A stretch of DNA of 40,970 nt from Rickettsiales bacterium (GTDB lineage: Bacteria; Pseudomonadota; Alphaproteobacteria; Rickettsiales; UBA1997): contig JBLHTM010000004.1 of assembly GCA_047627215.1 (NCBI GenBank), positions 1 to 40,970 of the forward strand, given 5' to 3'. The position numbers and the translations under genes were made by a program. The notes beneath the pieces are model-generated. The model saw only the letters and a program-made list of their open reading frames with translations. It searched no databases and was not told the DNA's origin. Shown here in pieces: positions 1 to 40,094 of the stretch. The first letter of the stretch is position 1. Every line of letters starts with the position of its first letter.

Positions 1-696
1 GCAATGCGTTATGGCAACCCTTCAACTGAATCAAAAATCAATGAATTGCTTCAAAAAGGATGCAAAAAAATTATTTTTATCCCGCTCTATCCACAATATT
101 GCGCCGCCACAACCGCGACAGTCACAGATGAGATTTATCGAGTTATGAGAAAAATAAGATGGCAACCAGAAATAAAAATTGTCAGCCAATATCCAGACAA
201 TAAAATATATATTGAGGCTTTGGTAGATAGCGTTAAAAACCACATCAAAACTCTAAATTTCAAACCAGATGCGATTCTTTCCTCATATCATGGAATTCCA
301 AAAATATATTTTGAAAAAGGCGATCCTTATTCATGTTTTTGTCGCAAAACCAACCGTCTATTTGGTGAAGAGCTTTTAAGGCAAGAAATGGGAATAGAAA
401 ATCATATTAGTTTTCAATCAAGATTTGGCCCCAAAGAATGGCTGCAACCATACACCGCAGATGTTTTGAAAGATTTGGTTAGTAAGGGAATAAAAAATCT
501 AATCGTCATCACTCCTGGTTTTGCAGCAGATTGCATAGAAACTTTGGAAGAAGTTGATATGGAATATCACGATTTGTTTTTAGAGCTTGGAGGGAAGAAT
601 TTTTCTTTGGTTCCTTGTTTGAATGATAGTGAGGGTGGAATCAAAGTTATCAACGATCTGTTGGAAAGCAATTTGGCTTATTTTCAGAATCAGTAG
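1..696 (+). CDS. hemH: Ferrochelatase (5' end outside window)
   Basis: Motifs MRYGNP, PLYPQY, SYHGIP, GDPY, FQSRFGPKEWLQPYT, GFAADCIETLEE. The frame is open to the window edge, so the Met at 4 is internal. Confidence 0.93.
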   Translation, partial: AMRYGNPSTESKINELLQKGCKKIIFIPLYPQYCAATTATVTDEIYRVMRKIRWQPEIKIVSQYPDNKIYIEALVDSVKNHIKTLNFKPDAILSSYHGIPKIYFEKGDPYSCFCRKTNRLFGEELLRQEMGIENHISFQSRFGPKEWLQPYTADVLKDLVSKGIKNLIVITPGFAADCIETLEEVDMEYHDLFLELGGKNFSLVPCLNDSEGGIKVINDLLESNLAYFQNQ

Positions 697-1077
697 ATAA
701 ATTAATTACCACCTTTAGTGCCAAGCATAAATTGCAAAAAAGTTACCATCACGAGTTGCAACTATGAGTTACCGTCATGCCGGGCATAGATTTTCTTAGG
801 TAGCTTTTCTGCCTTAGAAAATCTCGGGTCCGGTACCTCATGAGGAAAAATACCCGCCCGTAATTCTTGACCGATCTATTCTTTTAAAAGATCCTCGATC
901 CTGACTCACAAGATCCTCACTTTCGCGAGGATGACGATTATGTAAGGATGTAAAAATGGAAAATAAGATGATGATAAATAAGATTCTGCCACTCAAATTA
1001 GGTTATTTTCATAAGGAAGATCAAGGGCGCTTTTGAAGTGTATGATCCATTTATCCACTGATTTTGAAAATAGAGTC
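675..1077 (+). mobile_element. MITE-like repeat family A, copy 1 (both TIRs, degenerate TSD)
   Basis: Left end GGCTTATTTTCAGAATCAGTAGATAAAT and right end ATTTATCCACTGATTTTGAAAATAGAGTC are inverted repeats. Core CCGTCATGCCGG...CCGGTACCTCATGAGGAAAAATA is shared with five other copies. Flanks AGCAATTT / AATAATTT match at 6 of 8. Confidence 0.85.
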
Positions 1078-1122
1078 AATAATTTATAAATAATTCACCT
1101 TTCAAAACCCTCTCAGAATATT

Positions 1123-2904
1123 ATGAATAATCAAATTATCCTCAAATCCTACCTCTTTTCGCTCTTCTTGCGCTATAAAGTTTTTATCATTTCACTGGCA
1201 ATAATTGCGGTTGCGGCGGCGGGTTTTTATATTTCTGTGAATTACAAAATCAAAGAAATCATCGATATTATTGCCGCAAAATCTGACGATAATATTGGGC
1301 ACTTACTTTTGCTTTTTGTGCTTTTCAAATTCACTCAGCATTTTTTGTTTTTTATTATCAGATTGCTCGATATCAAATATCGTCCCAAAATGGGAGTTGA
1401 AATTATCAGCGATATGTATTGCAAAACCCTAGGTCACTCACTTCATTGGTTTGATTCGCATATGAGCGGTGAAATATCCGGAAAGATCATTGATTTTAAC
1501 ACCACCATATCAAAACTTATTGGTTATCTTGTTCGCGCTTTAAACAATGTTTCGGTCATAATAATTAGCTTGGTTTTCTTGTCTTTCATCAACCCCAAAC
1601 CAGCTTTGGTGATTGGCATTTTTATCATTATTTATGCGCCAATAATATGGTTTTTGCTAAAAAAACAACTTCATATTCAAGAGCAATACACCAAATCTAG
1701 GCAAGAAGCAGTTGGTATTATCAACGATTCTATTGCCAATATTTTTGGCATAAAAATTATCGGAAATATCTGGTCAGAATTCAAACTAAAGTTAAATCCT
1801 GCCTTGCTAAATTGGAAAGAATGGGAAAGAAAAGGGCGTTTTTTTGATGCTTGGTTTGTTGACAACGCCGACACAATTTTGATCACCATTATGAGTGCGG
1901 CGCAGATTTATCTTTTGGCTCATTTGTATAAAATTGGCGAAATTAGTGCGGGAGGATTTACTTTCGCGGTGATGACAACTCTCAGCATTCACAGTGAATT
2001 GGATAAATTTTTGGAAAGTTTTTTGATGGATATCATTCCCGGAATTGCCACTATGAAATCTTCCTTTTCTTTTGTGAGTACCGAATACGACATTAAAGAT
2101 CGTGCTGGCGCAAAAATTTTAAAGGATATTAAAGGCGATATCAAATTTGAAAATGTCAATTTTTCCTATGATGGTAAAAAGGAAGATAATTCCAAAAGAA
2201 TCGTTTTAGAGAATTTTAATTTACATATTCCCGCAGGTCAGAGATTAGGGGTTGTCGGAACTTCTGGGGCCGGAAAAACGACTCTCATCAAATGTTTACT
2301 GAGATATTTTGATATTCAAAGTGGAGGAATTTTAATTGACGGTAATAAAATTTCCGATGTCACTCAGGAATCTCTCAGGGCCAATATTTCTGTGATTCCT
2401 CAAGATATCACCATGTTTCATCGCTCTATTTTAGAAAATCTTCAATTGGCAAAATATGATGCTAGTAAAGATGAAATTATGGAAGCTTGCAAAAAAGCCA
2501 AAATTCATCACGACATCTTGGAAATGAGCGATGGATATGATTCTATCGTTGGTGAGCGTGGCGTGAAAGTTAGTGGCGGACAAAGACAAAGAATTGCAAT
2601 TGCGCGGGCAATTCTGAAAAATTCCCCGATTCTGATTTTGGATGAAGCGACGAGTGCACTTGACACAACTACAGAGAATTTGATTCAAGATTCCCTGAAT
2701 GAAGTTTTGGAAACCAGCGGCGCAACCGTTATTGCAATCGCTCATCGGCTTTCAACTTTGAAACATATGGATCGAATTCTTGTTTTGGAGAAGGGTAAAA
2801 TTATGGAAGATGGCAATCACAAAGAATTGATTAAAAAAGAAGATGGTCTTTATCGGAAATTATGGGAAATGCAGTCAGGGGTATTTTTACTGGAAAATGG
2901 ATAA
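1123..2904 (+). CDS. ABC-B (MsbA/MdlB-like) exporter, fused TMD + NBD
   Basis: Hydrophobic N-half; intact Walker A GTSGAGKT, signature VSGGQRQR, Walker B ILILDE, H-loop AHRLST. Confidence 0.9.
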   Translation: MNNQIILKSYLFSLFLRYKVFIISLAIIAVAAAGFYISVNYKIKEIIDIIAAKSDDNIGHLLLLFVLFKFTQHFLFFIIRLLDIKYRPKMGVEIISDMYCKTLGHSLHWFDSHMSGEISGKIIDFNTTISKLIGYLVRALNNVSVIIISLVFLSFINPKPALVIGIFIIIYAPIIWFLLKKQLHIQEQYTKSRQEAVGIINDSIANIFGIKIIGNIWSEFKLKLNPALLNWKEWERKGRFFDAWFVDNADTILITIMSAAQIYLLAHLYKIGEISAGGFTFAVMTTLSIHSELDKFLESFLMDIIPGIATMKSSFSFVSTEYDIKDRAGAKILKDIKGDIKFENVNFSYDGKKEDNSKRIVLENFNLHIPAGQRLGVVGTSGAGKTTLIKCLLRYFDIQSGGILIDGNKISDVTQESLRANISVIPQDITMFHRSILENLQLAKYDASKDEIMEACKKAKIHHDILEMSDGYDSIVGERGVKVSGGQRQRIAIARAILKNSPILILDEATSALDTTTENLIQDSLNEVLETSGATVIAIAHRLSTLKHMDRILVLEKGKIMEDGNHKELIKKEDGLYRKLWEMQSGVFLLENG

Positions 2905-3314
2905 TCATAAATTGACCCAGCATTATTTTTTGTTAAAAGTTACAATAGGTGATGAACTGGTCAACATGCTCTAGAATCTTCTCCAATTTGACGTCACTAC
3001 TAAATTTTTCTTATTTTTTAAGATTGAAAAATTTTTATCAAAAAAGCGCTAAAAATATGAAAACATCTACAATTAAATTAATTAGCTAAACAGTGTTTGA
3101 TGCCATCTCCGATCTTTGGATGGAAAACGTCATTACTAAAATCTTTGATTTTAGCGCGCGAAGCATACGAAAGGGCGATAGGAAATGGTATAAAATTCAG
3201 TAGCAATCTTAAAATCTTAATTGACAATGAATATTTTTGCTAGAAAAAGCGCTGTATCTTGATTGAAAACGATTTTTCAGAAGTGAAAAAAATAACTAAT
3301 TAAATTATAAATCC

Positions 3315-14869: not shown

Positions 14870-15303
14870 AAAACAATCTTATTTGGCTCCATGAAGATTC
14901 TTTGCGCCTTTCTCATCCAATATTTAAAGTTGCACCTTCGAATTGTGAGGCAATTTTTATTTGGGATGATGAATATTTGCAGCAGAAAAATTACAGCTTA
15001 AAGCGCCTAGTTTTTTTGTATGAAACTTTGTGTGAACTTGGGATAAATATTTTCCATGGCAATACCTTTCAAATTCTTGAATCTCAAAATGCGAAGATAA
15101 TTTACGTCCCTTCAAGTCCCAATCCTTGGATTAAGTCAATTTGCGAAAAATTAAGCGTAAATAAAAATATGATATTTGTTGATGATGAGCCATTTGTTTG
15201 TGAAAATTCAGATAGGGATTTCAAGCGCTTTTTCCCATATTGGAAAAAAATAGAGAAATCCGCATTCATGGTTAACGGAGGTATTAACCTTGAAGATAAT
15301 TAA
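14866..15303 (+). CDS. Stand-alone photolyase N-terminal (antenna-like alpha/beta) domain protein
   Basis: LIWLHEDSLR, AIFIWD, KRLVFLYETLCEL and FKRFFPYWK resemble the photolyase N-domain and linker. ATGA overlap with the preceding gene. Confidence 0.7.
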   Translation: MKNNLIWLHEDSLRLSHPIFKVAPSNCEAIFIWDDEYLQQKNYSLKRLVFLYETLCELGINIFHGNTFQILESQNAKIIYVPSSPNPWIKSICEKLSVNKNMIFVDDEPFVCENSDRDFKRFFPYWKKIEKSAFMVNGGINLEDN

Positions 15304-15424
15304 AAAGTCTGACTTACCCACTAAAAAATGTCTGCGTTGCGAAAGGCCTTTTATTTGGAGAAAAAAATGGAAAAAAGTTTGGGATCAGGTTAAATATTGT
15401 TCTGAAAAATGTAGGAAAAAATGA
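15290..15424 (+). CDS. Small DUF2256-like Cys4 protein (44 aa), absent from ORF track
   Basis: TTG start 7 nt after GGAGGT; translates MKIIKKSDLPTKKCLRCERPFIWRKKWKKVWDQVKYCSEKCRKK. Confidence 0.85.
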   Translation: MKIIKKSDLPTKKCLRCERPFIWRKKWKKVWDQVKYCSEKCRKK

Positions 15425-15496
15425 TTCATCGCAACTTGAATTTTTTACTAATCTAAGAAAAACATCTTTATTGCCGCATCAATTATTTTGATCAAA

Positions 15497-16366
15497 TCAA
15501 TTTAATTTAAGATCTTTTGATATTGCCCCCAACCCCTCTTTGTATGAGGGAAAAATAAATTCGTAGTTCAATAATTTTTTAAGTTTTTCGTTGCAGACAA
15601 TTTTATTGTCGATGGAAAGTGAAGAATTGTTGAATTCTTCGACATCGCTTTGGATGGGCAATTTGTGGATTTTTAAGAGCTCTGTGCAAATGTAATCATT
15701 TACTTCGGCCGTTGGGCAAGGGTGGTTGTCGGTGACATTGAGAATCTGATTATTAATTTTGTTTGACAAAATTACTGCTCTAATAATTGCCGAGATATCC
15801 GAAACATGGGTTCTTGATATTGTTCTGTTGGAAGGTTTGTTGTGGGTTATTTTGCCATCACGAATTGATAATATGGTGTTTCTTTGTTCTCCATAAATTG
15901 CCGCGAGCCTGAGGATGATGATATTTGCTGATTGATTTTTTTGTAACTTTTGGTAATGATCTTCACATTCAATTCTTGCTAGCCCACCACTGAATGTCGA
16001 TTTTAGATTTGAGTTTTCTTGAACTTTTGCGCCATCGTGATTTCCATAAACTGAGGTCGCTGATAGGTAAATTAGTTTGTAAGGAGTTTTGCGGTTTGAA
16101 AAATAATCATGAAATTTGTCGATTATCGCATCTGTTTTTTGTTGATTTGGAGGTATGGAAATGACGAAATTGTCGTAATTATTCAAAAACAAAGCATCAA
16201 TTTCTGGAAAATAAATAGTCTTGACGGAGCTTGGGGTTTTGAAATATTTATCTTTTGAAATGTTTATTGAGGCGCCCAAATTCAAAGATTCGTCCAAATG
16301 ATAGGATTGGCAGAAATATTGAGATACGTATCCGTGACCAAAAAATAGGGTGTTTTGTTTTTCCAT
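15497..16366 (-). CDS. NAD-dependent epimerase/dehydratase-like SDR (YeeZ-like)
   Basis: FGHGYV, VISIPP, YLSATSVYGNHDG, LRLAAIYG, SRTHVSDI, FIFPSYKEGL. Confidence 0.8.
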   Translation of the reverse strand: MEKQNTLFFGHGYVSQYFCQSYHLDESLNLGASINISKDKYFKTPSSVKTIYFPEIDALFLNNYDNFVISIPPNQQKTDAIIDKFHDYFSNRKTPYKLIYLSATSVYGNHDGAKVQENSNLKSTFSGGLARIECEDHYQKLQKNQSANIIILRLAAIYGEQRNTILSIRDGKITHNKPSNRTISRTHVSDISAIIRAVILSNKINNQILNVTDNHPCPTAEVNDYICTELLKIHKLPIQSDVEEFNNSSLSIDNKIVCNEKLKKLLNYEFIFPSYKEGLGAISKDLKLN

Positions 16367-16371
16367 GTTTC

Positions 16372-17100
16372 TTAAAATTCTATTTTAACGCCATTAAAAT
16401 CAATGATTTTACCAGAGTCTTTTGGGGATGAATTTTCAATCACTTCTAATAGTTTTTCCACCGAATATTCTGGTGTGAATAATTTCTCTTGGCTCACAGC
16501 TCCTTGAAAAGGTTTTGACAATTTGCTGTCTACCGTTCCTGGGTGCAGGCCAATTATTACGGCATTTTTATTGGATCTACCGATTTCTATTGATGCGTTT
16601 TTTAGGACCATATTCAAAGCTGATTTTGAGGCGCGGTAGGAATACCAGCCCCCTAAATGATTGTCGGAAATACTGCCAACCCTGGCGCTTATGGCCGCGA
16701 AAACGGATTTTCTTTCTCTATTTAGTTTAGGTAAAAAATGTTTAGCGATTATTGCTGGCGCGATGGTATTGACGTTGAATAATTTTTGGAATTTTTCTTT
16801 CGATAGGTCTCGAAGCGACTTTTCGGGACCGAAATCTTGGTTGTGAAGCATACCGGTGGCAACAATTACCATGTCTAGTTTTGCATTTTCACTGGCAATA
16901 TCGACGGCTGATTTGATGGATTCTTCATCCTCAATGTCGATAAAATGGGATGTTGTTTTTTCATTATCAAAATCAGTTTTTGATCTGCTAAATGCAAATA
17001 TTGATTTTGTTTGTGGGTTTTGTGCCAATTGTTTGACAAACATTTCACCCAAAGATCCACTGGCGCCGATGATGGCGATGTTTAAATTTTCTTTTTGCAT
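16372..17100 (-). CDS. Short-chain dehydrogenase, CsgA/C-factor-like
   Basis: IIGASGSLG, GPEKSL, SARVGSISDNHLGGWYSYRASKSALN, LHPGTVDSKLSKPF. Confidence 0.88.
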   Translation of the reverse strand: MQKENLNIAIIGASGSLGEMFVKQLAQNPQTKSIFAFSRSKTDFDNEKTTSHFIDIEDEESIKSAVDIASENAKLDMVIVATGMLHNQDFGPEKSLRDLSKEKFQKLFNVNTIAPAIIAKHFLPKLNRERKSVFAAISARVGSISDNHLGGWYSYRASKSALNMVLKNASIEIGRSNKNAVIIGLHPGTVDSKLSKPFQGAVSQEKLFTPEYSVEKLLEVIENSSPKDSGKIIDFNGVKIEF

Positions 17101-17197
17101 TTCATAAACTGATTTAATTTTGTAAATTACTTTTTATTCAATTCTTATTTCTTTGGAATATCAAGAGTTAATTCCATTTACATAATCTCCATACTTA

Positions 17198-17445
17198 TGA
17201 GTCATGATCGAGGATTTTTTAAAAGAATAGATTGGTCAAGAATTATAGGCGGATATTTTTCCTCATGAGGTACCGGATCAAGAGTTTCTAAGGCGGCAAA
17301 GCTACCTAAGAAACTCTATGTACGGCATGACGAGAACTAGTTATAGTGGGTCATGATGGTGGTGAACCATGGTGGTTATTTCTTTACAATTTATTCTTGG
17401 TGCCAAATTGGTAATGAATTTACTTACTCATTTTGAAAAAGAGTC
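17198..17445 (-). mobile_element. Repeat family A, copy 2 (inverted, one TIR, truncated)
   Basis: Reverse complement of the core (TTTTCCTCATGAGGTACCGGATCAAGAGTTTCTAAGG...GGCATGACG); TIR AATTTACTTACTCATTTTGAAAAAGAGTC at 17417-17445. Confidence 0.85.
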
Positions 17446-17548
17446 AATAATTGGTGGAATTTTTTTGTCAAAATTTCAATATCAATTTCCCAAATTTATT
17501 ATTATATTGCTTTTGCAGCTCTTCACATCAATCTTAAATTAATAAATC

Positions 17549-18550
17549 ATGATCAAAGCATACGCCGCCTACAATCAAGGCGAAGAATTGAAGCCTTTCG
17601 AATATGATCCAGGGGAATTGTCTGCAAACCAAGTTGAAATCGACGTTCATTATTGCGGAATTTGTCATAGCGACATTAGCATGATCGACAATGATTGGGG
17701 ATTGACCCAATATCCAATTGTTGCTGGACATGAAGTTTCGGGAAAAATTTCTGCCATTGGCAAAGATGTGAAATCTTTCAAAATTGGCGACAATGTTGGG
17801 CTGGGATGGCATAAAGAATATTGCGGAAATTGCCCAAGCTGCGATTCTGGCGACAATAATTTATGTGGAAGTGCACAAGGGACAATTATTGCAAATCATG
17901 GTGGATTTGCTGATAAAGTTCGAGCTCATGCCAAAAGCGTGGTCAAAATTCCAGATGGTGTTGATTTGGATTCTGTTGGTCCATTATTTTGTGGCGGAGT
18001 GACGGTTTTCAATCCATTAGTTCAATTCGATATCAAGCCTTACCACAAAGTTGCAGTTATTGGAATTGGTGGACTTGGGCATATGGCTTTGAAGTTTTTG
18101 AATGCTTGGGGGTGTGAAGTGACAGCATTTACTTCTTCTGAAAACAAAAAAACAGAAGCTTTGGAACTTGGTGCTCATCGCACTGTAGATTCTAAAAATG
18201 TGCAAGAAATTGAGAAAAATGCTGGCAAATTTGACATGATAATATCGACAGTAAATGTTAAGCTTGATTGGAATTTGTATCTTTCAACTTTGAAAGCAAA
18301 AGGTAGATTGCACTTTGTTGGTGCCAGCCTAGAGCCTTTGGATATTGGAGTTTTTAACCTCATTTCCGCCCAAAGGTCGATCTCAGGATCTCCAGTTGGC
18401 AGTCCTGAAACAATCGCCAAAATGTTGGATTTTGCTAAATTGCACAAAATCAAGCCAAAAATTGAAGTTTTCAAAATGAGTGAAATCAATCAGGCGATTG
18501 ATAAATTGAGAAATAACGATGTTCATTATCGTGCTGTTTTGAAGAAATAG
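17549..18550 (+). CDS. ahr: Zn-dependent NADPH aldehyde reductase (Ahr/YjgB-like)
   Basis: CGICHSD, GHE, CGNCPSC...C structural Zn site, GPLFCGGVT, GIGGLGH, SISGSPVGSP. Confidence 0.85.
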   Translation: MIKAYAAYNQGEELKPFEYDPGELSANQVEIDVHYCGICHSDISMIDNDWGLTQYPIVAGHEVSGKISAIGKDVKSFKIGDNVGLGWHKEYCGNCPSCDSGDNNLCGSAQGTIIANHGGFADKVRAHAKSVVKIPDGVDLDSVGPLFCGGVTVFNPLVQFDIKPYHKVAVIGIGGLGHMALKFLNAWGCEVTAFTSSENKKTEALELGAHRTVDSKNVQEIEKNAGKFDMIISTVNVKLDWNLYLSTLKAKGRLHFVGASLEPLDIGVFNLISAQRSISGSPVGSPETIAKMLDFAKLHKIKPKIEVFKMSEINQAIDKLRNNDVHYRAVLKK

Positions 18551-18551
18551 G

Positions 18552-18774
18552 GGTTTTTTTTCAAAATGAGTGGGTAAATTAATTACAACTTTAGTGCCAA
18601 ACATAAATTGTAAAAAATTTACCACCATGAGTCACCATCACAATTTACTACGTTTGAGTTACCGACATGCCGGACATAGAGTTTTTTAGGTAGCTTCGCT
18701 GCCTTAGAAAATATTGATCCGGCACCTCATGAGGAAAAATATCCGTCCACAATTCTTGATCCGATCTATTCTTT
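18552..18774 (+). mobile_element. Repeat family A, copy 3 (left TIR, truncated)
   Basis: Starts GGTTTTTTTTCAAAATGAGTGGGTAAATT just after the ahr stop; the core follows; similarity ends inside the last codons of tilS. Confidence 0.85.
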
Positions 18775-19734
18775 CTTGAAAATAAAAATTTCATCAGAGT
18801 TTCTTTTTTCCAAAATACAGCCGTAGCAGCCTTCTTTTTGTTTCAATTCATCGTCTGCAATTAACCAATAAATTCTCTCCAATTTCTTCAATCTCGGCTT
18901 GTATTCTCTTTGTGAAACTTCCATCAAAGCCATTCCCAGATATCTGGTTGCGACTGACTTTTCTAGTTTTTTGAACCTAGTAATATCTAAAATAAACCCC
19001 TCTGAAAATTTTTTGAAAATTTTGGGGAAATTCTTTTTGGTATCTTTTGACAAAATTTCCTTGGCTTCCAACATGGCATTGGAAGCCAAAGCGATTCGAT
19101 CGTTAATGACATTGAAATCGGGAAGAGATTCGATGAATTTTCGGACTTTATTGCGCAAAAATTTTTCATTTTCATTGGTTTCGTCTTCAACCCAAGATGC
19201 TTTTTTTGTTAATAGATATTGCTTCAAGTCGTTTTTTGAGAAATCCAACAAAGGGCGAATGATCTGTAGTTTATTGTGAAAACTAACGACTCCCATTGAT
19301 GCCAGCCCGTCAATTCCGCTGCCTCGAAAGAGACGAATGAGGAAATTTTCTGCTAAATCTTGGCGATGATGGGCGATAAAAAGATGTTTTATTTTGTTTT
19401 TTTGACAGAAGCCTTCAAACAGATTGTAGCGCACTTGGCGCAAAGAATTTTCAATATCAGCTTCGGGCGGAGTCTGCAAATAGGATTTTAGAATCGTGCA
19501 GGGAATGGAATGTTTGGAGCAAAAATTGGCCACAAAATTGGCGTCTTGGGCAGAATTTTCACGCACATCATGGTCAACTGTCAGGCAGTGAATCGTGTTT
19601 CCTGTAATGTCTTTGAGAAGCAGAAGTAAGGCCATTGAGTCGAGACCTCCAGAAACTGCCACAGCGATTCTACTGGGTAATTGCTTGGGGAATAGTTTGT
19701 GAATGTTGAAGGAGAATTGTGTTTCTATTGTCAA
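18766..19734 (-). CDS. tilS: tRNA(Ile)-lysidine synthetase (short form)
   Basis: PP-loop VAVSGGLDSMALL, TVDH, AHHRQDLAENFLIRLFRGSG, IIRPLL, WVEDETN, RNKVR. TTG start. Confidence 0.93.
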   Translation of the reverse strand: MTIETQFSFNIHKLFPKQLPSRIAVAVSGGLDSMALLLLLKDITGNTIHCLTVDHDVRENSAQDANFVANFCSKHSIPCTILKSYLQTPPEADIENSLRQVRYNLFEGFCQKNKIKHLFIAHHRQDLAENFLIRLFRGSGIDGLASMGVVSFHNKLQIIRPLLDFSKNDLKQYLLTKKASWVEDETNENEKFLRNKVRKFIESLPDFNVINDRIALASNAMLEAKEILSKDTKKNFPKIFKKFSEGFILDITRFKKLEKSVATRYLGMALMEVSQREYKPRLKKLERIYWLIADDELKQKEGCYGCILEKRNSDEIFIFKKE

Positions 19735-19950
19735 GGGTATGTGAGTTTTAAGTTGTTGGTGGTGAGTTGTTGGTTATTTCTTGATCATTGTGCGTAAAAG
19801 ATTCAAACAAAAAATATTTCTTTGATAAAATTGTAATTTTTTGGGTAGAGATGTTTTCATTTTGGTAGTTTTTAATGAATGAAAAGTCGCAGACTAAAAG
19901 CTACGACTAGTGCCTGAGGCGGATTATTTATCTCCGCTCATGATTAATCA

Positions 19951-20745
19951 TTATTTAAGTACGTCTTGCATGGTGTAAAAACCCTGAGGTTTTCCTTTTG
20001 ACCAGATTGCAGCGCGAAGAGCTCCTGTGGCGTAAATATCGCGGTTTGAAGCTTTGTGGGTAAGTTCTATTCTCTCGCCACTTCCTGCAAAAATTACCGA
20101 ATGATCGCCGATCACATCGCCGCCACGTAGGGCGGAAAAGCCGATTTCGTTTTCAACTCTTTTACCAATAATTCCATCGCGAGATCTGCGGCTCACTTCA
20201 CCAAAATTGAGCCCGCGACCTTTGGCAACTGCTTCACCAAGTGATAAAGCGGTTCCTGAAGGAGCGTCGACTTTGTCGCGATGGTGCATTTCAAAAATTT
20301 CGGCGTCATAGTCGGAATGTAAAGTTCTGGCAACTTGCTCCGCCAAATTCATCAAAAGATTGACCCCGATAGACATGTTTGAAGACCAGATGATTAGGCA
20401 ATTTTTGGCGTGATTTTTGAGAGTGTCTTTTTCGTTTTCGGAAAATCCAGTTGTTCCACAAACCATCGTTTTTTGATATTTTTCAACTAACTGAGCCAAT
20501 TGCAATGAGAGTTCAGGTTTTGAAAAATCAATAATCACTTCAGAATCTTTGACCAATTCTTCCAAATTGTCGGTGGCGTTGACGCCTAAATATTCGTCAT
20601 TGATGATTTTTCCAATGTCTTTTCCGACCAAATCACTACCCATTCTGACCAAGCCAGATGAGATGTCGTTTAGATCATTTTTCAATGTTGCTTTGGCAAC
20701 TGATTTTCCCATTCTGCCGCTGATTCCGATGATTCCGATTTTCAT
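19951..20745 (-). CDS. dapB: 4-hydroxy-tetrahydrodipicolinate reductase
   Basis: GISGRMG, IDFS, GTTGF, EMHHRDKVDAPSGTA, LRGGDVIGDH. Confidence 0.96.
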   Translation of the reverse strand: MKIGIIGISGRMGKSVAKATLKNDLNDISSGLVRMGSDLVGKDIGKIINDEYLGVNATDNLEELVKDSEVIIDFSKPELSLQLAQLVEKYQKTMVCGTTGFSENEKDTLKNHAKNCLIIWSSNMSIGVNLLMNLAEQVARTLHSDYDAEIFEMHHRDKVDAPSGTALSLGEAVAKGRGLNFGEVSRRSRDGIIGKRVENEIGFSALRGGDVIGDHSVIFAGSGERIELTHKASNRDIYATGALRAAIWSKGKPQGFYTMQDVLK

Positions 20746-20979
20746 GATGTATTTGATTTTTTGAAGAAATTGAAGATTGGAAGAGTAATTATGAGCTTGA
20801 AAGAATTCAATCTTTTAAAGTGAGTTGTTGCGAAAAATGTGATATGATAGTTATTGCCCTATCAAGTTTGATGCTATTGAAAAAAAAGGGGTAAATAACA
20901 ATATTGATCTATTGATAATTTTTAAAAAAATAGACGTTAAGATCTGACGATAAAATGCCTCCAATCTAGGTGGGGTAAG

Positions 20980-21169
20980 CAGGTCGAGGATTTTTTAAAA
21001 GAATAGATCGGATCAAGAATTGTAGACGGATATTTTTCCTCATGAGGTACCGGATCAAGAGTTTCTAAGGTAGCAAAGCTACCCAAGAAACTCTATGTCC
21101 GGCATGACGGTGACTAATAGCGGTAACCCGTGGGGTGACTTTTATAATTTATGCTTGGCACTAAGGTGG
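20980..21169 (-). mobile_element. Repeat family A, copy 4 (inverted, core only)
   Basis: TCGAGGATTTTTTAAAAGAATAGATCGG...CCTCATGAGGTACCGGATCAAGAGTTTCTAAGG...CCGGCATGACGG...ATGCTTGGCACTAAGGTGG; no TIR recognisable. Confidence 0.85.
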
Positions 21170-21230
21170 CGCAAGGTTAATGATCATGCGGGTATTTGGT
21201 GATTTTTATTAATTTAATTTTTCGTTCAAT

Positions 21231-22172
21231 ATGAAGGCATTGTTAAGATCATTTGGTTTTGGGAAGAAAGGACCAAGAAAATCTTTGGTGCCGGGAAGTG
21301 GTAAAAATCAGGGGTCTGATTCTTTGGGGGCAACAAATAATGGTGCTGTTGGGACCGATACCAACCCTCGTCATTTGGAAGGTCGTCCTTCAGAGTCTCC
21401 AGCCAAAGATAGTTCCAATAAATCATCAAAAGCGAGAAAAACTATTATTGAAAGTGAAGAGGATAAAATTTTAAAGATGGTATTTTTCTGCACAGGAAAT
21501 GTGCATCGATCCGTGATGGTAATGCTCATAGCTCAACAAATTTTTGGTGAAAATTATGAGTTTGATTCTGCGGGTGTGTCAGTTGTTGATGTGGGCGACA
21601 AGAAATTTGCCATAGAAGGCGAAAAGGTTTGGTCGGAAGATCTTGCAAAAGATCAGGAAAATACCAAGGGAATGATTAGAAATTACATGGAGAGTATGGG
21701 GTTTGAATATCGCCATCATGAAATTCGCGGCGTTGATGAAGATTTGTTGGATGGCAATGACTTGGCGCTATGTTTAAAAGAAGATCATTGCGAGGAATTG
21801 CGCGAAAAATTTCCTAACCAAAAAAATAAAATTGGTCTTTACAGCGAAGAGGTAAAAACAATGCCTGATCCTTTTGACTTTGATGGGTTTGATATTCCTG
21901 GCAAATCAACCAGACATTGTGAGGAAAATTTCAAGAAAGCATATCAGTCAGTAATATTACTTATTGTGAGTAGTACGATAGATCTTGTGGAAAAGCATGT
22001 TAAGGATGCTGATAAAATTTCTGAGTGCCATGAAAGAATCTTCAACAATCAATTTCTGCGGGGAGATGGTTTGGAAGAAATTAAGCTGTGGAATGAGGGC
22101 AGGGAAAGTGAGAAATCTGTGTCGGAGGCAATTAATAAAATTAGCTCTTTTGTCAAAAAAAAGTCAGACTAG
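21231..22172 (+). CDS. Low-molecular-weight protein tyrosine phosphatase-like protein with long N- and C-terminal extensions
   Basis: P-loop VFFCTGNVHRS, FDSAGV, DLALCLKEDH, MPDPF; about 80 aa of polar G/S/K-rich N-terminus. Confidence 0.7.
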   Translation: MKALLRSFGFGKKGPRKSLVPGSGKNQGSDSLGATNNGAVGTDTNPRHLEGRPSESPAKDSSNKSSKARKTIIESEEDKILKMVFFCTGNVHRSVMVMLIAQQIFGENYEFDSAGVSVVDVGDKKFAIEGEKVWSEDLAKDQENTKGMIRNYMESMGFEYRHHEIRGVDEDLLDGNDLALCLKEDHCEELREKFPNQKNKIGLYSEEVKTMPDPFDFDGFDIPGKSTRHCEENFKKAYQSVILLIVSSTIDLVEKHVKDADKISECHERIFNNQFLRGDGLEEIKLWNEGRESEKSVSEAINKISSFVKKKSD

Positions 22173-22187
22173 ATTGAAGGATGATTT

Positions 22188-23390
22188 TTAAATGTTGAAT
22201 CTGCCGTTATTTTTTAAAACAAAAATCAAATAAACCAAACTCGCACCAGCAATCACCACCACAAATCCTTCCTTCCCCATAAATTGCATCAAAATTCCGG
22301 TCAATAAATTTCCAATAAAAATTCCAAACAAACCAATCGCCGCAAAAGATGAATTGATGAAAACTAGTTGGCTTTTTTTCTTGTTCAAATTGATGCCATA
22401 CCAACAAGAAATTGCCACTAGTGAGGTGAAAACTCCCAAAGTCAAATAAAGCAATATTGCCAAATAATATGTTTTGATGGCAAAAGGTAAAAGTAAAATG
22501 CAGACAATGAAGGCAACGAAACCCATTAGAATCAGTTTTTGGTAGGATTTTTTGTTGATGATAAAACCAAAGATAAAATCGAGCATTCCAACGGCTGAAA
22601 GGGCGCTGATCAATAGGCCGGAATTTTCTGGGGAGAGTCCACTTTTGACGCCATAAATCACCGTAAAAAACATTATTGTTCCGCATTGCAAATCGGTTAA
22701 TAGCCTCGCCATGGACATTTGAGGGTTTCTTTTGATTAAGCTGGCAAATCTTATTTTTTTGGCGATTACCATTTTTGGTTGAATTTTTCGCAAGGGGATC
22801 AGCGATGCGCATGAGGCAAAAATTAGAATCGCAGATGCAATAAAAATTTTGTAATCACCAACGCCAAATATTTTGACAATGACAGGCCCTACGGCAAATC
22901 CTGCACAAAGAAAACTGCTGGAAACAGCGATGATCATGCTGCGGATTTTATTCTTTATTGCCATGTTGAACCAAGCTCGGCGCAAGGTCACCAAGCTGAT
23001 GATTGAAATTCCCAGAGTAAAACTCAGTAGCATCCACAAAAAGAAATTTTGGTAAAAGGGAATAATCAAAATGACTAACGCAGAAATGAAGCTGAAAAGT
23101 AAAATCGAATTAAAAATCCCAATTTTTCTAGATAATTTGTGCAGTAAAAAAATGATGATCAAACCGCCCAAAACATCTCCTGCCGTGGTGATTCCGATTA
23201 GAGTTTCTGAAACATTTTTGGAATAGAGAATGAAGGGCAGAGAGACGGAATTGATCCCAATTGCGGTGGACAAGAAGAAGACGCTAAGGAGCATCAAAAT
23301 GATGTGATTTAGTCCGAAAAGAGATTTTTTTTGATCAGCAATTTTGACATTATTTATGATCTTGAAAGTTCTTGTGACGATTCCTAGCAT
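22188..23390 (-). CDS. MFS transporter (YcaD-like)
   Basis: About 12 hydrophobic segments, GFAVGP motif. ATG at 23390 preferred over the upstream alternative start at 23462. Confidence 0.8.
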   Translation of the reverse strand: MLGIVTRTFKIINNVKIADQKKSLFGLNHIILMLLSVFFLSTAIGINSVSLPFILYSKNVSETLIGITTAGDVLGGLIIIFLLHKLSRKIGIFNSILLFSFISALVILIIPFYQNFFLWMLLSFTLGISIISLVTLRRAWFNMAIKNKIRSMIIAVSSSFLCAGFAVGPVIVKIFGVGDYKIFIASAILIFASCASLIPLRKIQPKMVIAKKIRFASLIKRNPQMSMARLLTDLQCGTIMFFTVIYGVKSGLSPENSGLLISALSAVGMLDFIFGFIINKKSYQKLILMGFVAFIVCILLLPFAIKTYYLAILLYLTLGVFTSLVAISCWYGINLNKKKSQLVFINSSFAAIGLFGIFIGNLLTGILMQFMGKEGFVVVIAGASLVYLIFVLKNNGRFNI

Positions 23391-23586
23391 TAGATAATTG
23401 ATGGTTTGGTGGTTTTTAGGATCAGTGAATTTAGCGGATGTTTCTGGAATATTCCAACACAAAATAATTGCGTAACTTTCTATTTTAAATTTCTGACAAT
23501 ATTGCCTTACCAGATCATTTGCGAAAGGACAATTGAGTTCAAAAAATTACCCTTGCCTTCCAAAATATCAAAACCTAATCTAACAT

Positions 23587-23605
23587 AAATGCCCGACGGG
23601 CATTT
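23587..23605. promoter_or_regulatory. Perfect 19-bp palindrome, candidate operator
   Basis: AAATGCCCG-A-CGGGCATTT, GC-rich within an AT-rich divergent intergenic region, 38 nt before the ATG at 23644. Confidence 0.4.
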
Positions 23606-23643
23606 TTCTAATTTCAATTTATCAACCTAAAAAAACCCAAAAA

Positions 23644-24477
23644 ATGGAAAATAAAATTCTTTCACCCAATCAATATTCACAACTCTATTGCGACCTAAAA
23701 ACCTTAATTTCAAACACCAAAGAGGAAATTGAGAAATTCGCCCGCCATCAGCTTATTGTCACTTATTGGCAAATAGGAAGAAGAATCGATGAGGAAAGAA
23801 TGACCCTCAATGCCAATTATTCAGCGTTGATTATTGGTAATTTGTCGGAAGATTTGGCAATGGACAAAAACACCCTGACCAGAGCGGTGCAGTTTTTCAA
23901 AACCTACCCAAACCTACCCGAAAAGAGCTCCCTTTCTTGGTCGCATTATCGACATTTGATCACCGTGAGTGAAGATTCTGTTCGCTCCGACCTGGAGGAT
24001 GAAAGCAAAAATGAAAATTGGTCAGCCACCAAATTGGCCGATCGGTTGAAAAATTTTAAAGAATCTGGGAATCAAAACATTGCAAATCTCAAAATCAAAA
24101 GACCCACGAAAGCCAACTATCTTTATCGTGCCAAAATCATCAATGTTGTTGATGGGGACACAATGGTTCTGGATGTTGATCTTGGTTTTGATGTTGTTAA
24201 ACGCCAAAGAATTCGTTTGGCGCAAATTGATTGTGCGGAAATGAAAACGGATGAGGGGCAAAAATCTTTCAAATATTTGCGCGATTTGGCGGCAAGCTTG
24301 AATGAGGTGGTGGTTCGAACTAATAAAGTTGACATTTTTGGAAGGTTTATTGGTGATTTGTTTTATTCCATCAATGACGACGGGGTGAAATCGCGAAATG
24401 AAAAGATTGAAACTTTTGAAAATGGGGTCTATTTGAATGAGAAGATTGTGACGGATGGCATGGCGAGAATTGTTTGA
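23644..24477 (+). CDS. DUF1016/YhcG N-terminal domain fused to thermonuclease (SNase) domain
   Basis: N-half YWQIGRRI...LSEDL...QFFKTYP...LSWSHYRHL...ENWSATKL; C-half VVDGDT, RIRLAQIDCAE, DIFGR, LNEKIVTDGMA. Confidence 0.8.
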   Translation: MENKILSPNQYSQLYCDLKTLISNTKEEIEKFARHQLIVTYWQIGRRIDEERMTLNANYSALIIGNLSEDLAMDKNTLTRAVQFFKTYPNLPEKSSLSWSHYRHLITVSEDSVRSDLEDESKNENWSATKLADRLKNFKESGNQNIANLKIKRPTKANYLYRAKIINVVDGDTMVLDVDLGFDVVKRQRIRLAQIDCAEMKTDEGQKSFKYLRDLAASLNEVVVRTNKVDIFGRFIGDLFYSINDDGVKSRNEKIETFENGVYLNEKIVTDGMARIV

Positions 24478-24543
24478 TTGCAACTTGGTATTACTTGAAA
24501 TTTTAAGCAATAGTTAGATTTTAATTATTCTCTTATTTTAAGA

Positions 24544-25420
24544 TTAGTTCTTAGATTTGTTTTTCAAGGAATAACCAAAATAAAGCAAAATATCTGAATA
24601 AATCACCATCACAAAACCTTCCTTCCCTAAATATTGTATTGAAATTCCAACTAGTAAACTTCCTGCAAATGCTCCAAATAATCCAATTGCTGCAAAATAT
24701 TAATTAACGAAAACTAGTTGATCTTTGTGTTTGGTTAAATTGGTGGCATGCCAACGGCAAATAATTACCAATTGGACATTCCAGCCCAGAAGCAAAGTGG
24801 AATATTATTTTGATAAAGGACCGGGGGAGGAAACATGGAGTTTGCACTAATTGCCGTGGATAAAAAAATAGGATCTTTTTCAAAATGAGTGGGTAAAACA
24901 ATTACCACCTTGGTGCCCAAGCATAAATTGTAAAAAATTTAAAATCATGAATTACTACCATAATTCACCATCACGAATTACCGTCATGCCGGACATAGAG
25001 TTTCTTAGGTAGCTTTGCTGCCTTAGAAACTATTGATCCGGTACCTCATGAGGAAAAATATCCGCCTACAATTCTTGATCAATCTATTCTTTTAAAAAAT
25101 CCTCGATTCCATACTTACGAGATCCTCACTTTCGTGAGGATGACGATTATGTGAGTGTTACAATTATGTGAGTTTTACAATTATGTGAGGATGGCGATTG
25201 TGAGTACTAGAGATTGTGAGGGGGTGTAAAAATGGAGAATAAGATGACGATAAATAAAATTCCACCACTCAAATTAGGTTATTTTCATCAGGAAGATCAA
25301 AACCACTTTTTAAGTAGATAATTAATTTACCCACTCATTTTGAAAAAGAGCCAAAAAATATTAGTGAGAAACGAAGCTATGTGGCAATATCCTAAAAAAT
25401 GGGATTTTTTACCATCAATC
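24544..25420 (-). pseudogene. Decayed paralog of the MFS gene at 22188-23390
   Basis: 24771->24544 translates LVIICRWHATNLTKHKDQLVFVN*YFAAIGLFGAFAGSLLVGISIQYLGKEGFVMVI, versus LVAISCWYGINLNKKKSQLVFINSSFAAIGLFGIFIGNLLTGILMQFMGKEGFVVVI. The N-terminal part DGKKSHFLGYCHI...IFLSTAISANS is split by repeat copy 5. Most of the middle of the gene is missing. Confidence 0.85.
24871..25352 (+). mobile_element. Repeat family A, copy 5: full-length 482-bp MITE with perfect 8-bp TSD
   Basis: TIRs GGATCTTTTTCAAAATGAGTGGGTAAA / TTTACCCACTCATTTTGAAAAAGAGCC; direct repeat AAAAAATA at 24863-24870 and 25353-25360. Confidence 0.92.
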
Positions 25421-25460
25421 TCAAAATACTTAGTATTTTGATAATCTGCCTTAAAATATT

Positions 25461-26285
25461 TTACTTCAAGGTGCCGCTTTTAATATGTAAATCTCTTTGT
25501 GGATAGGGCATTGAAATTTTCTCTTGATCAAATCCCAATTTAACTTTTTCTGTAATATCAAACTTAACTGCCCAATAATCCTCTTTTTTGACCCAAGGGC
25601 GAACAACGAAATTAATACTGCTATCAGCTAATTCTGAAACAGCAATTTTTGGTTCTGGATCTTTTAAAATTCTCTCATCATTTTCAACAATTTTGGTCAA
25701 AACTTCTTTGACTTTCTTAATATCATCTTCATATGAACAGCCAAAAACCATATCGACCCGACGAGTTTCATTGGCGGAATAGTTGGTAATGTTGCCAGAA
25801 GTGATTAGGGAATTTGGTGAAATAATGGATTTATTATCGGCAGTTTTTATTTTGGTGGTAAATATTTTCACCTCTTCAACAGATCCTGAAATTCCAGCTG
25901 CTTCAATCCAGTCCCCAATTTTGAATGGTTTGAAAAAAATAATCATTATCCCAGACGCAACATTAGAAAGAGATCCTTGAAGAGCGAAGCCAATAGCAAG
26001 ACCGGCGGCCGCAACAACGGCGGCAAGGGAAGTGGTCTCGACTCCAAGCTGTCCTATTGCGGTGATTATTACAAAGGTAATCATTAAGCCATAAAGAACA
26101 TTGCTCAAAAATTTTGCTAATGTTTCATCAACATTTCTAGCAATTAATGTCTTTCTAAGATAGTTAACTATCTTTTTGGCAATAAATTTTCCGATCAAAA
26201 AAATAGCTAAAGCGGCAATAATATTTAGGCCAAAGAAAATAGCGCTGTTAATCATTTCTTTGTTTAATATTTCGCCCATTTGCAT
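25461..26285 (-). CDS. mscS: Small-conductance mechanosensitive channel
   Basis: AAAGLAIGFALQGSLSNVASG, KPFKIGD, TRRVD, LADSSINF, MPYPQRDLH. Confidence 0.93.
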   Translation of the reverse strand: MQMGEILNKEMINSAIFFGLNIIAALAIFLIGKFIAKKIVNYLRKTLIARNVDETLAKFLSNVLYGLMITFVIITAIGQLGVETTSLAAVVAAAGLAIGFALQGSLSNVASGIMIIFFKPFKIGDWIEAAGISGSVEEVKIFTTKIKTADNKSIISPNSLITSGNITNYSANETRRVDMVFGCSYEDDIKKVKEVLTKIVENDERILKDPEPKIAVSELADSSINFVVRPWVKKEDYWAVKFDITEKVKLGFDQEKISMPYPQRDLHIKSGTLK

Positions 26286-26471
26286 TGTGGATTTTTAATA
26301 AAAAATCTGGATTAAAAAATTCAGACTAGCAGCAAGTTTTTTTAAGTTCTATTTTGCAAGAAAGAGTAAGTTTGTTTGATATTTTTCGCGACCCCAAGTT
26401 CACAACTTGATAAATTAGGGGCAAAAAATATCAAAAAAAGTCTCTATTTTGCCATAAAAGCAAATCTTAAA

Positions 26472-27875
26472 TTACATGTGGATTGGTCGCTTATCAACAG
26501 CCAAAGCCGCTTCTTTAACAGCTTCATTGTAGGTTGGGTGAGCATGACAAGTTCTGGCAATATCTTCTGCAGATCCGCCAAATTCCATTGCCACAACAAT
26601 TTCATGAATCATGTTTCCAGCTTCACGACCAATGATGTGAGCACCGAGGATTTTGTCAGTTGTTTTGCAAGCAAGAAGTTTAACAAATCCTTCTGAATCT
26701 CCTGTTGCTCTGGCTCTTGAGTTTGCCATCATTGGGAATTTTCCGACATTGTAAGCCACATTCGCAGCTTTCAATTCTTCCTCGGTTTTTCCAACTGAAG
26801 CCACTTCTGGGTAGGTGTAGATCACATTTGGAATGCAATCATAATTGATGTGACCAGCGCCGCCGGCGATGATTTCTGCAACCGCCATTCCTTCATCTTC
26901 AGCTTTGTGAGCAAGCATTGGTCCTGTGGTACAATCTCCAATAACGTAGATATTATCTACTGAAGTTTTAAGATGGTTATTTGGAATGAATCCTCTTTTG
27001 TCAGTTTCAATTCCAACTTTATCCAAACCTAAATTTGCAGTATTTGGCTTTCTACCAATTGCAACCAAAACCACATCAGCTTCTAGGGTTTCTTTTTTGC
27101 CGCCAGCAGCAGCTTCAACTTCAACAATCGCGCCAGATTTTCCTTTTTTGACAGACACAACTTTTGTTGAAAGACGGAATTTGAATTTTTGTTTTTCTAG
27201 AATTCTTTTAAATTGTTTAGAAATTTCTCCGTCCATTGTTGGAGTGACTTTGTCTAAATATTCAACAACCTCAATTTCAGAACCAAAACGCCCCCAAACT
27301 GAAGCCATTTCAAGCCCAATAACACCAGCGCCAATGACTAATAATTTTTTAGGAACTTTTGTTAAATCAAGCGCGCCAGTTGAAGAAACGATGATTTTTT
27401 CGTCAATTTTAACACCAGGCAAGTCAGTAACTTCTGAGCCAGTTGCAATGATGAAATTTTTGGCAGAAATTTTCTCGATTTTTCCATCTTCCAAAGCAAC
27501 TTCAACAGTGTTTTTATCCAAAAACTTGCCATATCCATTAATGAGAGTGACTTTATTTTTCTTAAACAAGCCAGCAATTCCACTAGTTAATCCTTCAACG
27601 ATTTGATCTTTATTGGAAATAACCTTTTTGACATCAACTTTCGGTTTTGAAACTTCAATTCCAAGATCGGCAAAATGTTCGGCATCATGAAATTTGTGAG
27701 ATACTTCCAAAAGTGCTTTTGAAGGAATGCAACCAACATTCAAACAAGTTCCACCAAGAGTTTTGCGAGTTTCTACGCAAGCCACTTTAAGCCCTAATTG
27801 AGAAGCGCGAATTGCTGCTACATAGCCTCCAGGGCCACCACCGATAATTACTAAGTCGAAATTTTGATTTGTCAT
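26472..27875 (-). CDS. lpdA: Dihydrolipoamide dehydrogenase
   Basis: GGGPGGY, GGTCLNVGCIPSK, GAGVIGLE, MLAHKAEDEG, HAHPTYNE. Confidence 0.97.
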   Translation of the reverse strand: MTNQNFDLVIIGGGPGGYVAAIRASQLGLKVACVETRKTLGGTCLNVGCIPSKALLEVSHKFHDAEHFADLGIEVSKPKVDVKKVISNKDQIVEGLTSGIAGLFKKNKVTLINGYGKFLDKNTVEVALEDGKIEKISAKNFIIATGSEVTDLPGVKIDEKIIVSSTGALDLTKVPKKLLVIGAGVIGLEMASVWGRFGSEIEVVEYLDKVTPTMDGEISKQFKRILEKQKFKFRLSTKVVSVKKGKSGAIVEVEAAAGGKKETLEADVVLVAIGRKPNTANLGLDKVGIETDKRGFIPNNHLKTSVDNIYVIGDCTTGPMLAHKAEDEGMAVAEIIAGGAGHINYDCIPNVIYTYPEVASVGKTEEELKAANVAYNVGKFPMMANSRARATGDSEGFVKLLACKTTDKILGAHIIGREAGNMIHEIVVAMEFGGSAEDIARTCHAHPTYNEAVKEAALAVDKRPIHM

Positions 27876-34185: not shown

Positions 34186-34349
34186 TAGATAGTGTCGACT
34201 TATTATTTAAATTTTGATTTTTTAGGATATTTTGAGCGATTTTTTCATAAATTTTCGACGAATATCGGGATATATTTTAGAAAATTTATGAAAAAAAGAG
34301 CCAAAATAGACAAAAAAGCAAAATTTAAAGAATATGTCGACACTATCTA
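34186..34349. repeat. 164-bp palindromic (foldback/MITE-like) element, family B
   Basis: 31-bp terminal inverted repeat with 2 mismatches (TAGATAGTGTCGACtTATTaTTTAAATTTTG) and an inner perfect 17-bp inverted repeat TTTTTTCATAAATTTTC / GAAAATTTATGAAAAAA. Confidence 0.75.
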
Positions 34350-35564: not shown

Positions 35565-35565
35565 T

Positions 35566-36657: not shown

Positions 36658-36827
36658 GAAATTGTGTGTATTATATTGCGACAGTGCAAGTTTTTATGAG
36701 AAAATATGGTGATATCTCTTTACTTTTTTAAGAGATTCTATTTAATGACGAAGTTTTTTATTGACTAGGTTTTTTAGCCAAATAATACTAATTTTGTATT
36801 AACATAATTTCTCGTTCCCTTCAGATT

Positions 36828-37184: not shown

Positions 37185-37435
37185 TGGCCAATATAATTAT
37201 TTATACCACCGATTATTGTCCTTATTGCGTGAAAGCAAAAATTCTTTTGCAGAAGAAAAAAGTTGAGTTTAAGGAAATCAAAATTTCTGACGACCAAACT
37301 CGTGAAGCAATGATCAAAAAATCCAACGGCAAAAGAACCGTTCCTCAAATCTTCATCAATGATTTTCATGTTGGAGGATCTGACGAACTTCACGATCTTG
37401 ATCGTGCAGGGAAATTGGACGCTCTTTTAAAATAA
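37184..37435 (+). CDS. grxC: Glutaredoxin 3
   Basis: CPYC, TVPQIFI, HVGGSDEL, GKLDALL. Confidence 0.93.
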   Translation: MANIIIYTTDYCPYCVKAKILLQKKKVEFKEIKISDDQTREAMIKKSNGKRTVPQIFINDFHVGGSDELHDLDRAGKLDALLK

Positions 37436-37461
37436 TTTTTTAGATAAATTATTTTTCTCCT

Positions 37462-37490
37462 CTTGTCAAAAAAACAATCACCACTATATC
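37462..37490 (+). promoter_or_regulatory. Possible RpoH (sigma32) promoter of groESL
   Basis: CTTG-N18-CTATAT resembles the alphaproteobacterial heat-shock promoter consensus, about 95 nt before groES. Confidence 0.45.
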
Positions 37491-37585
37491 TCCAGCAAAT
37501 CTCGTGTTTTCCACTTTCTTTTCAAGAAAGCCATCTTTAGGGCACAATGAAAACAAAGACTATTAACTAATAATCAAACAAAAAA

Positions 37586-37873
37586 ATGGCCATTAAAACT
37601 CTACACGACAACATTTTAGTTGAACGAATCGAAGCTGAAACCAAAACCAAAGGCGGAATTATTATTCCTGACACTGCTCAAGAAAAACCATCAGAAGGCG
37701 TGATCATCGCTGTTGGTGAAGGCGCATATGACAATAATGGAAAAAGAATTCCACTCGATGTCAAAATTGGTGATAAAATCCTTTTCAAAAAATGGGGATC
37801 AACTGAAGTAAAGCTTGATGACAAAGAATTGGTCATCATGAAAGAATCTGATGTTTTGGCCATAATCAGCTAA
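37586..37873 (+). CDS. groES: Co-chaperonin GroES
   Basis: [31 protein letters not shown]. Confidence 0.97.
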
Positions 37874-37910
37874 TCATTAACCCCGCCATTAAATAACTAA
37901 TAACTAATAA

Positions 37911-39566
<1,656 letters not shown>

Positions 39567-39594
39567 ATCCAATATCTACTCAATAAAACAAACT

Positions 39595-39634
39595 AAAAAG
39601 GGTTTGCGCAATATTTGCGCAAACCCTTTTTTTT
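39595..39634 (+). terminator. Intrinsic terminator of groESL
   Basis: AAAAAGGGTTTGCGCAA-tat-TTGCGCAAACCCTTTTTTTT. Confidence 0.85.
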
Positions 39635-39691
39635 GGTTTTCTTAAAAACTTATGTTTCGGTAGCAACTTAACATAAGTTGTTTCGAGCATC

Positions 39692-40094
39692 AAAATTCAC
39701 CACCATGAGTACTGCCATGATTTAACACATCACGCGAGTTACCGTCATGCCGGACATAGATTTTCTTAGGTAGCTTTGCTGCCTTAAAAAATCTTGATCC
39801 GGTACCTCATGAGGAAAAATATCTATCTACAATTCTTGATCAATCTATTCTTTTAAAAAATCCTCAATTCCTGACTCACGAGATCCTCACTTTCGCGAGG
39901 ATGACGATTATTTGAGTGTGGCAATTATGAGGATGACGATTTGGAGTACTAGAGATTGTGAGGGGGTGTAAAAATGGAAAATAAGATGACGATAAATAAA
40001 ATTCCACCACTCAAATTAGGTTATTTTCATCAGGAATATCAAGACCACTTTTTAAGTAGATAATTAATTTACCCACTCATTTTGGAAAAGAGCC
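39692..40094 (+). mobile_element. Repeat family A, copy 6 (right TIR, left end lost)
   Basis: Core plus the full right arm, highly similar to copy 5, ending AATTTACCCACTCATTTTGGAAAAGAGCC. Confidence 0.88.

Follow-up and report, generated by a model that had tools for sequence, protein, structure and literature searches.

What kind of repeat is scattered through this stretch of DNA, and what moved it there? The stretch, which we call the window, comprises positions 1 to 40,970 of contig JBLHTM010000004.1; it is contig C4 in the 98-contig, 1,298,554-bp assembly (35.7% G+C, completeness 86.85%) of a Rickettsiales bacterium, referred to here as G000. A preliminary description, made from the letters of the window, had proposed six copies of a MITE (a miniature inverted-repeat transposable element) related to the ISL3 family of insertion sequences (ISs). 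It seems to us very likely that these loci do belong to a non-autonomous MITE family, and that its terminal inverted repeats (TIRs) are the ends of an ISL3-family IS represented by two metagenome loci, L157 and L159.

The repeat family and its target sites

A repeat search within the window ties all six loci into one family as direct or inverted repeats, and the 29-nt TIR consensus has five matches there at no more than three mismatches, against none in 100 shuffles. The boundaries first given hold to within about 10 nt, those of copies 2 and 4 being refined (Table 1), and alignment of the window copies bears out a common core of about 130 bp. How far does the family extend through the genome? 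When copy 5 is used as a blastn query, G000 yields 193 high-scoring segment pairs that resolve into 88 loci, covering 22,589 bp or 1.74% of the assembly. Because 11 of the loci lie at contig ends this is a lower bound; the hundreds per genome that had been extrapolated from the window are nevertheless too many for 88 loci in 1.30 Mb. All seven modules of the element are present in 12 loci, and these complete copies have a mean identity of 90.3% in aligned columns (84.0-96.3%, 66 pairs). A profile made from them has 108 non-overlapping genomic matches, and the TIR has 81 matches in G000 at up to six mismatches, 15 of them exact.

The element is about 430-515 bp long, with TIRs of 27-34 bp that carry the inner motif GAGTGGGTA, and short tandem repeats lie on both sides of a core formed by modules C1 and C2. 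The 12 complete genomic copies have longest closed open reading frames (ORFs) of 34-54 aa, in keeping with the absence of coding capacity noted at the outset. Small size (277-515 bp in the copies with paired ends), the lack of a transposase gene and the 88 loci are together what characterizes a MITE. The window alignment hinted at a hyper-conserved core, an idea that we reject: over the 108 genomic hits identity is even, at 0.71-0.97 per 10-nt bin. Among the 121 genomes of the bacterial family that were searched, the full-length element is found in G000 alone, while three of the six congeners have TIRs, accompanied by the right arm or not, and one genome of another genus has TIRs alone. We also observe in G000 two sibling families of three loci each, which have the same ISL3-type TIRs and different interiors with G+C-rich palindromes.

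Do the copies carry the mark of transposition? Plus and minus TIRs could be joined into 22 pairs, of which three were dropped (spans of 16.8 kb and 3.2 kb made up of ordinary genes, and a 167-bp pair with six and five mismatches). In the 19 pairs retained (277-515 bp) the outer 8 nt are identical in six, and differ by one mismatch in three more; among 342 control pairings of mismatched flanks, 0.6% are perfect and 2.0% have at most one mismatch. Perfect duplications of 6, 7, 9 or 10 bp are seen in none of the 19. The 8-bp duplications are 93% A+T, so that the AT-rich target duplications originally expected are indeed there. At copy 5 there is also a comparison with a congener, G005, in which the two flanking genes are adjacent (locus L135). 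The spacer between them is about 260 bp, versus 983 bp in G000, and is without the element, divergence being too great for exact alignment of the junctions. Around copies 2-4 the congeners have a different gene order.

All 88 loci are intergenic, overlapping ORFs of at least 120 aa by less than 10%. Of the 60 loci that have two called neighbours, 34 lie between convergent genes, 22 between tandem and four between divergent genes, while convergent spacers make up 142 of the 923 spacers genome-wide (15%; binomial p 2e-13). Reckoned by base pairs, the convergent baseline is 31%, a figure inflated by the elements themselves.

The ISL3 partner and the nested hairpin

What enzyme might have acted on these ends? 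ISs of the ISL3 family, as described in ISfinder, are about 1.2-1.6 kb long, have inverted repeats that start with GG, and produce 8-bp duplications. Both L157 and L159, which come from a single metagenome scan with the G005 transposase as query (loci L157-L236), agree with this description in size and ends, and L157 in its duplication. L157 is 1,387 bp long, agrees with the MITE TIR at both ends in 27 of 27 nt, and lies within a perfect 8-bp duplication, GCTTAAAT. Its left end resembles the right arm of the MITE, with a match of about 90% over 46 nt. One frameshift breaks its ISL3 transposase into ORFs of 158 and 279 aa, the second of which scores 218.3 bits with PF01610. L159 is 1,345 bp long, with ends identical to the MITE TIR at 24 of 25 positions and an intact 420-aa ORF. 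That ORF scores 269.7 bits with the NCBIfam model NF033550, 'ISL3 family transposase' (cut-off 180), 218.6 bits with PF01610, and 25.2 bits with PF13542, under the cut-off of 27.4. The scan found 80 relatives of the G005 transposase in all, a large ISL3 subgroup with mostly intact ORFs of 410-447 aa, and 54 of the 80 share GG(C/T)TCTT...AGTGGGTA ends. Relatives with 8-bp duplications of their own include L127 (GAATGAAT), L108 (AAAAACTA, in a register set by eye) and L094 in G005 (Table 1).

Closer to G000, matches to PF01610 occur in only two of 126 genomes of the bacterial family, G074 and the congener G005. The ISL3 element of G074 (L093) was considered as a partner and rejected, being unrelated and without TIR similarity at up to nine mismatches. 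G005 has two degraded ISL3 copies within MITE-like TIR pairs; for one of the copies, L125, the identity to L157 is 77% along the entire length. The DNA flanking these remnants has an identity of 69-87% to that of G000, and hence the remnants are not a product of bin contamination. The nearest relatives of the G005 transposase in the genome collection are at most 54% identical to it. The PF01610 search of G000 itself gave no match; a relic of the transposase N-terminus is found at C7:16577-16690, with 74% identity over 38 aa (E 2e-11) and in-frame stops. That the G000 MITE at C29:10656-10998 and the L094 IS share one site was considered and rejected, as their flanks do not align.

An ISL3 ORF bounded by matching TIRs, which the preliminary description had suggested looking for, is thus present in L157, in L159 and in the degraded copies of G005, with none intact in G000. 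The similarity of the MITE to the G005 elements and to L157 is limited to the terminal 25-46 nt; the interior is unrelated to the IS, and so only the ends are IS-derived. To speak of a non-autonomous ISL3 derivative is therefore apt for the ends and the 8-bp duplications, and misplaced for the interior, which is not what internal deletion of a parent IS, the classical origin of a MITE, would leave.

Where, then, does the interior come from? C1+C2 is found alone, without ISL3 arms, at C9:18543, C46:2991 and C59:5341, and at position 59988 of contig C1 (contig names being distinct from module names); its boundaries at these loci are sharp and shared. Likewise, the C1 hairpin, CGTCATGCCGGA...TCCGGTACC, stands alone in G000 at C2:44564-44635, C12:6103-6188, C22:13867-13940 and C93:1965-2040, and it does so too in G117 and G124, which belong to another genus. 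A set of 17 distinct C1 sequences gives 93% canonical pairing over 20 stem pairs, with both partners changed in 10 of the 20; neither value is attained in any of 1000 shuffles, and slid registers fall to 33-45%. Since the core and C1 also occur without ISL3 arms, C1 even in another genus, and since the stem changes are compensatory, we infer that an independent hairpin repeat came to lie between the ISL3 ends before the burst. A 162-bp palindrome upstream of a U32 peptidase gene (contig C1, about 27100-27330) was considered as another occurrence of the MITE core and rejected, having no BLAST hit at E<=0.01. When the two hairpins are compared by eye, only the basal motif ATGCCGGA...TCCGGTA is common to them, perhaps a sign of a larger group of hairpin repeats.

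What series of events could account for the family? The ends of an ISL3 IS would have come to enclose foreign DNA that included the nested palindromic element of about 170 nt, and the composite would then have been amplified to some 60-90 sites. An ISL3 DDE transposase supplied in trans would have bound the MITE ends and either excised or copied the element, inserting it at AT-rich sites, where a staggered cut of 8 bp would give rise to the 8-bp duplication. Copies survive almost only in intergenic DNA, by preference between convergent genes. The family is probably no longer mobile in G000, because no transposase is assembled there apart from the 38-codon relic and many copies are truncated. 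In contigs of four runs labelled ice metagenome, each of which includes the region (X1, X5, X6 and X7; 15000-27000), no joint that skips a copy was found; the run contigs break at the repeats, and the joints listed connect different copies.

Might the true amplifying unit instead be the nested palindrome, C1 or C1+C2, spreading by a mechanism of its own in the manner of Rickettsia palindromic elements (RPEs) or repetitive extragenic palindromic (REP) sequences, with the ISL3 ends as incidental passengers of some copies? C1 is the commonest module: its non-overlapping hits number about 73, those of each TIR about 40-45. In view of this excess the core may to some extent have spread without the ISL3 ends; the solo copies, the occurrence of C1 in another genus and the compensatory changes in its stem are also what such a unit would lead one to expect. 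However, the 8-bp duplications sit exactly outside the ISL3 TIRs, which argues that the whole TIR-to-TIR unit transposed. The core, moreover, has the same position and the same junctions in all TIR-bearing copies, as fits one capture followed by amplification; the sibling families have other interiors between the same TIRs, and for the solo hairpins no duplication or mobilising enzyme was identified. We consider it very unlikely that the palindrome amplified by itself. One might also think that the repeats are functional elements selected by the host, and not merely selfish DNA: bidirectional transcription barriers, hairpins that lie between convergent genes and stabilise mRNA, or the gene of a small RNA. 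The strong excess between convergent genes would suit such a role, as would the covariation of the C1 stem and the fold of the whole element, which as single-stranded DNA reaches -71.7 kcal/mol (z -6.8 versus shuffles). Yet the convergent bias is expected equally from purifying selection against harmful insertions. There is no terminator-like site, and promoter-like sites are not above the level of shuffles; conservation, even along the element, is not centred on any one module, and truncation, frequent among the copies, falls at varied points. Nor does Rfam supply a match, either for the window at the gathering score or for 24850-25380 at E<=1, so that no existing Rfam entry covers the element, as its presumed novelty implied. 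Host selection is to our minds a highly improbable explanation.

The preferred reading, a MITE family moved by the ISL3 transposase, has its own difficulties besides the excess of C1. In 10 of the 19 paired copies the 8-bp flanks differ at two to six positions. The congeners offer no base-precise empty site, and the run contigs gave no population polymorphism. Neither G000 (at its 86.85% completeness) nor the six congeners nor 125 other genomes of the bacterial family yielded an intact transposase with these ends, and L157 and L159 are metagenome loci, the sole match of the L157 flanks to G000 being a tRNA-Arg gene. Finally, the gene calls behind the convergent-spacer test are crude ORF calls.

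A further idea joins the two parts of the element. C1 might be a structure-dependent element, selfish or used by the host, for which the ISL3-type MITE has served as a vehicle of dispersal; in a gene-dense, reduced genome, copies would perhaps be kept between convergent genes since the hairpin acts on transcripts, as a read-through barrier or an RNA stabiliser. We regard this proposal as unlikely.

Copies in the window and other repeats

Both ends are present in two of the six window copies, 1 and 5, and the other four (2, 3, 4 and 6) are truncated. The left TIR of copy 1 is mismatched at six of 29 positions, and its flanks, AGCAATTT and AATAATTT, agree at six of eight. An ORF at 4..696 terminates within that TIR (675-696). 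Copy 3 begins 1 nt past the stop of an ADH-like ORF, 17549..18550, and is overlapped (18766-18774) by the 3' end of a tilS-like ORF on the minus strand, 18766..19734. With ORFs ending inside copies 1 and 3, the insertions touch the 3' ends of genes. Copy 6 lies between the convergent groEL and ORF 40165..40968(-); the closest relatives of this GroEL are records of metagenome-assembled genomes (MAGs), mostly labelled Rickettsiales, with identity up to 90%.

Table 1. Features of the ISL3-type MITE family in the window, with related loci elsewhere
Feature	Position or locus	Strand	Remarks
MITE copy 1	675..1077	+	both TIRs degenerate; variable module missing
MITE copy 2	17207..17445	-	truncated: one TIR, left arm, C1 hairpin, part of C2; between divergent ORFs
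MITE copy 3	18552..18774	+	one TIR; truncated at about element position 222
MITE copy 4	20984..21169	-	internal fragment: part of arm, C1, part of C2; no TIR
MITE copy 5	24871..25352	+	complete, 482 bp, all modules
Copy 5, left target-site duplication	24863..24870	.	8-bp AAAAAATA, perfect duplication
Copy 5, right target-site duplication	25353..25360	.	8-bp AAAAAATA, perfect duplication
Copy 5, left TIR	24871..24904	+	from repeat search and TIR match
Copy 5, right TIR	25319..25352	-	exact match to the family consensus and to the L157 IS end
Copy 5, nested palindromic element (C1+C2)	24976..25155	+	about 170-180 nt; also elsewhere in the genome without ISL3 arms
Copy 5, C1 hairpin	24979..25052	+	about 72 nt; stem kept by compensatory changes
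MITE copy 6	39692..40094	+	5'-truncated, left TIR missing; right TIR 40066-40094 with 1 mismatch
TIR matches in window	17417-17445(-), 18552-18580(+), 24871-24899(+), 25324-25352(-), 40066-40094(-)		at most 3 mismatches
C1 hairpin loci	L148-L154		
ISL3 remnant L089/L125	G005		1,330 bp; ends GGCTCTTTTT(T/C)AAAATGAGTGG(T/G)T
ISL3 remnant L090/L094	G005		1,284 bp; duplication AATAATAA
Sibling family 1	G000 C70:4907-5363, C21:~901-1317, C38:10279-10596		ISL3-type TIRs
Sibling family 2	G000 C44:4271-4585, C61, C31		ISL3-type TIRs

Two other repeats were seen in the window. At 34186-34349, between two ORFs on the minus strand, is a nested palindrome of 164 bp whose arms are 92% complementary. It has no relation to the ISL3-type MITE and is part of another repeat family, which gives hits on four other G000 contigs; of these hits, C2:3770-3944 is 97% identical. 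A 206-nt direct repeat (71% identity) has one copy at 22207-22412, within ORF 22188..23462(-), and the other at 24557-24762, in the spacer upstream of copy 5.

Significance and comparison with known systems

Why should this family be of interest? The repeat accounts for at least 1.7% of a reduced genome of 1.3 Mb and lies at 11 contig ends, and through its abundance and these positions it bears on the annotation and assembly of the lineage. To our knowledge the mechanism of the ISL3 family has been little studied, and a MITE together with a cognate ISL3 element that has identical 27-nt ends makes a clean pair for the study of trans-mobilisation. An IS-end MITE that contains a second, independently occurring hairpin also illustrates, on a small scale, the formation of mosaic mobile DNA. 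No new principle is shown by a MITE family of ISL3 type. A literature search on the TIR string and on ISL3 MITEs in Rickettsiales returned nothing relevant.

How does the family compare with systems already described? RPEs are known for in-frame insertion within protein-coding genes. The nested C1 or C1+C2 element can be set beside them by description, as a short palindrome (about 70-170 nt) that is dispersed in a small genome of Rickettsiales type and has no enzyme of its own; it differs in that the loci here are intergenic without exception. With ISL3 ISs proper (NF033550, PF01610), represented by L157 and L159 at 1.35-1.39 kb and with transposases that pass the curated ISL3 models, the window elements have only 25-46 terminal nt in common, and they lack a transposase. 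ISArsp7, another member of the ISL3 family, is given in the part of PMC6305408 that describes it as 1,451 bp long, with an inverted repeat GGCTCTTCGCGG... and an 8-bp direct repeat; the GGCTCTT start and the 8-bp duplication are shared by the MITE family of the window and its partner IS.

The closest parallel is the ISL3-type MITE of Microcystis aeruginosa PCC 7806, which in the main text of PMC11448079 is a non-coding element of 187 nt with many copies and a stem-loop fold, GGCTCTTCG ends that match ISL3-family ISs, and 8-nt direct repeats, and for which mobilisation in trans by an ISL3 transposase was inferred. As far as that text describes it, the Microcystis element is like the MITE of the window in its inverted ends that start with GGCTCTT, its 8-nt repeats, its many copies and its stem-loop fold. 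By the same account the window's MITE is longer, at 430-515 bp, with a longer TIR (27-34 nt and the inner motif), it resides in a Rickettsiales-like MAG, and it contains a nested palindromic element that occurs independently; judged from the text of PMC11448079 apart from its supplementary sequences, the two have no sequence relationship beyond GGCTCTT. ISL3-type MITEs have thus been published already, in Microcystis, and the G000 family adds another case, modestly interesting in two respects: we can point to the cognate IS, and inside the element lies a second hairpin repeat.

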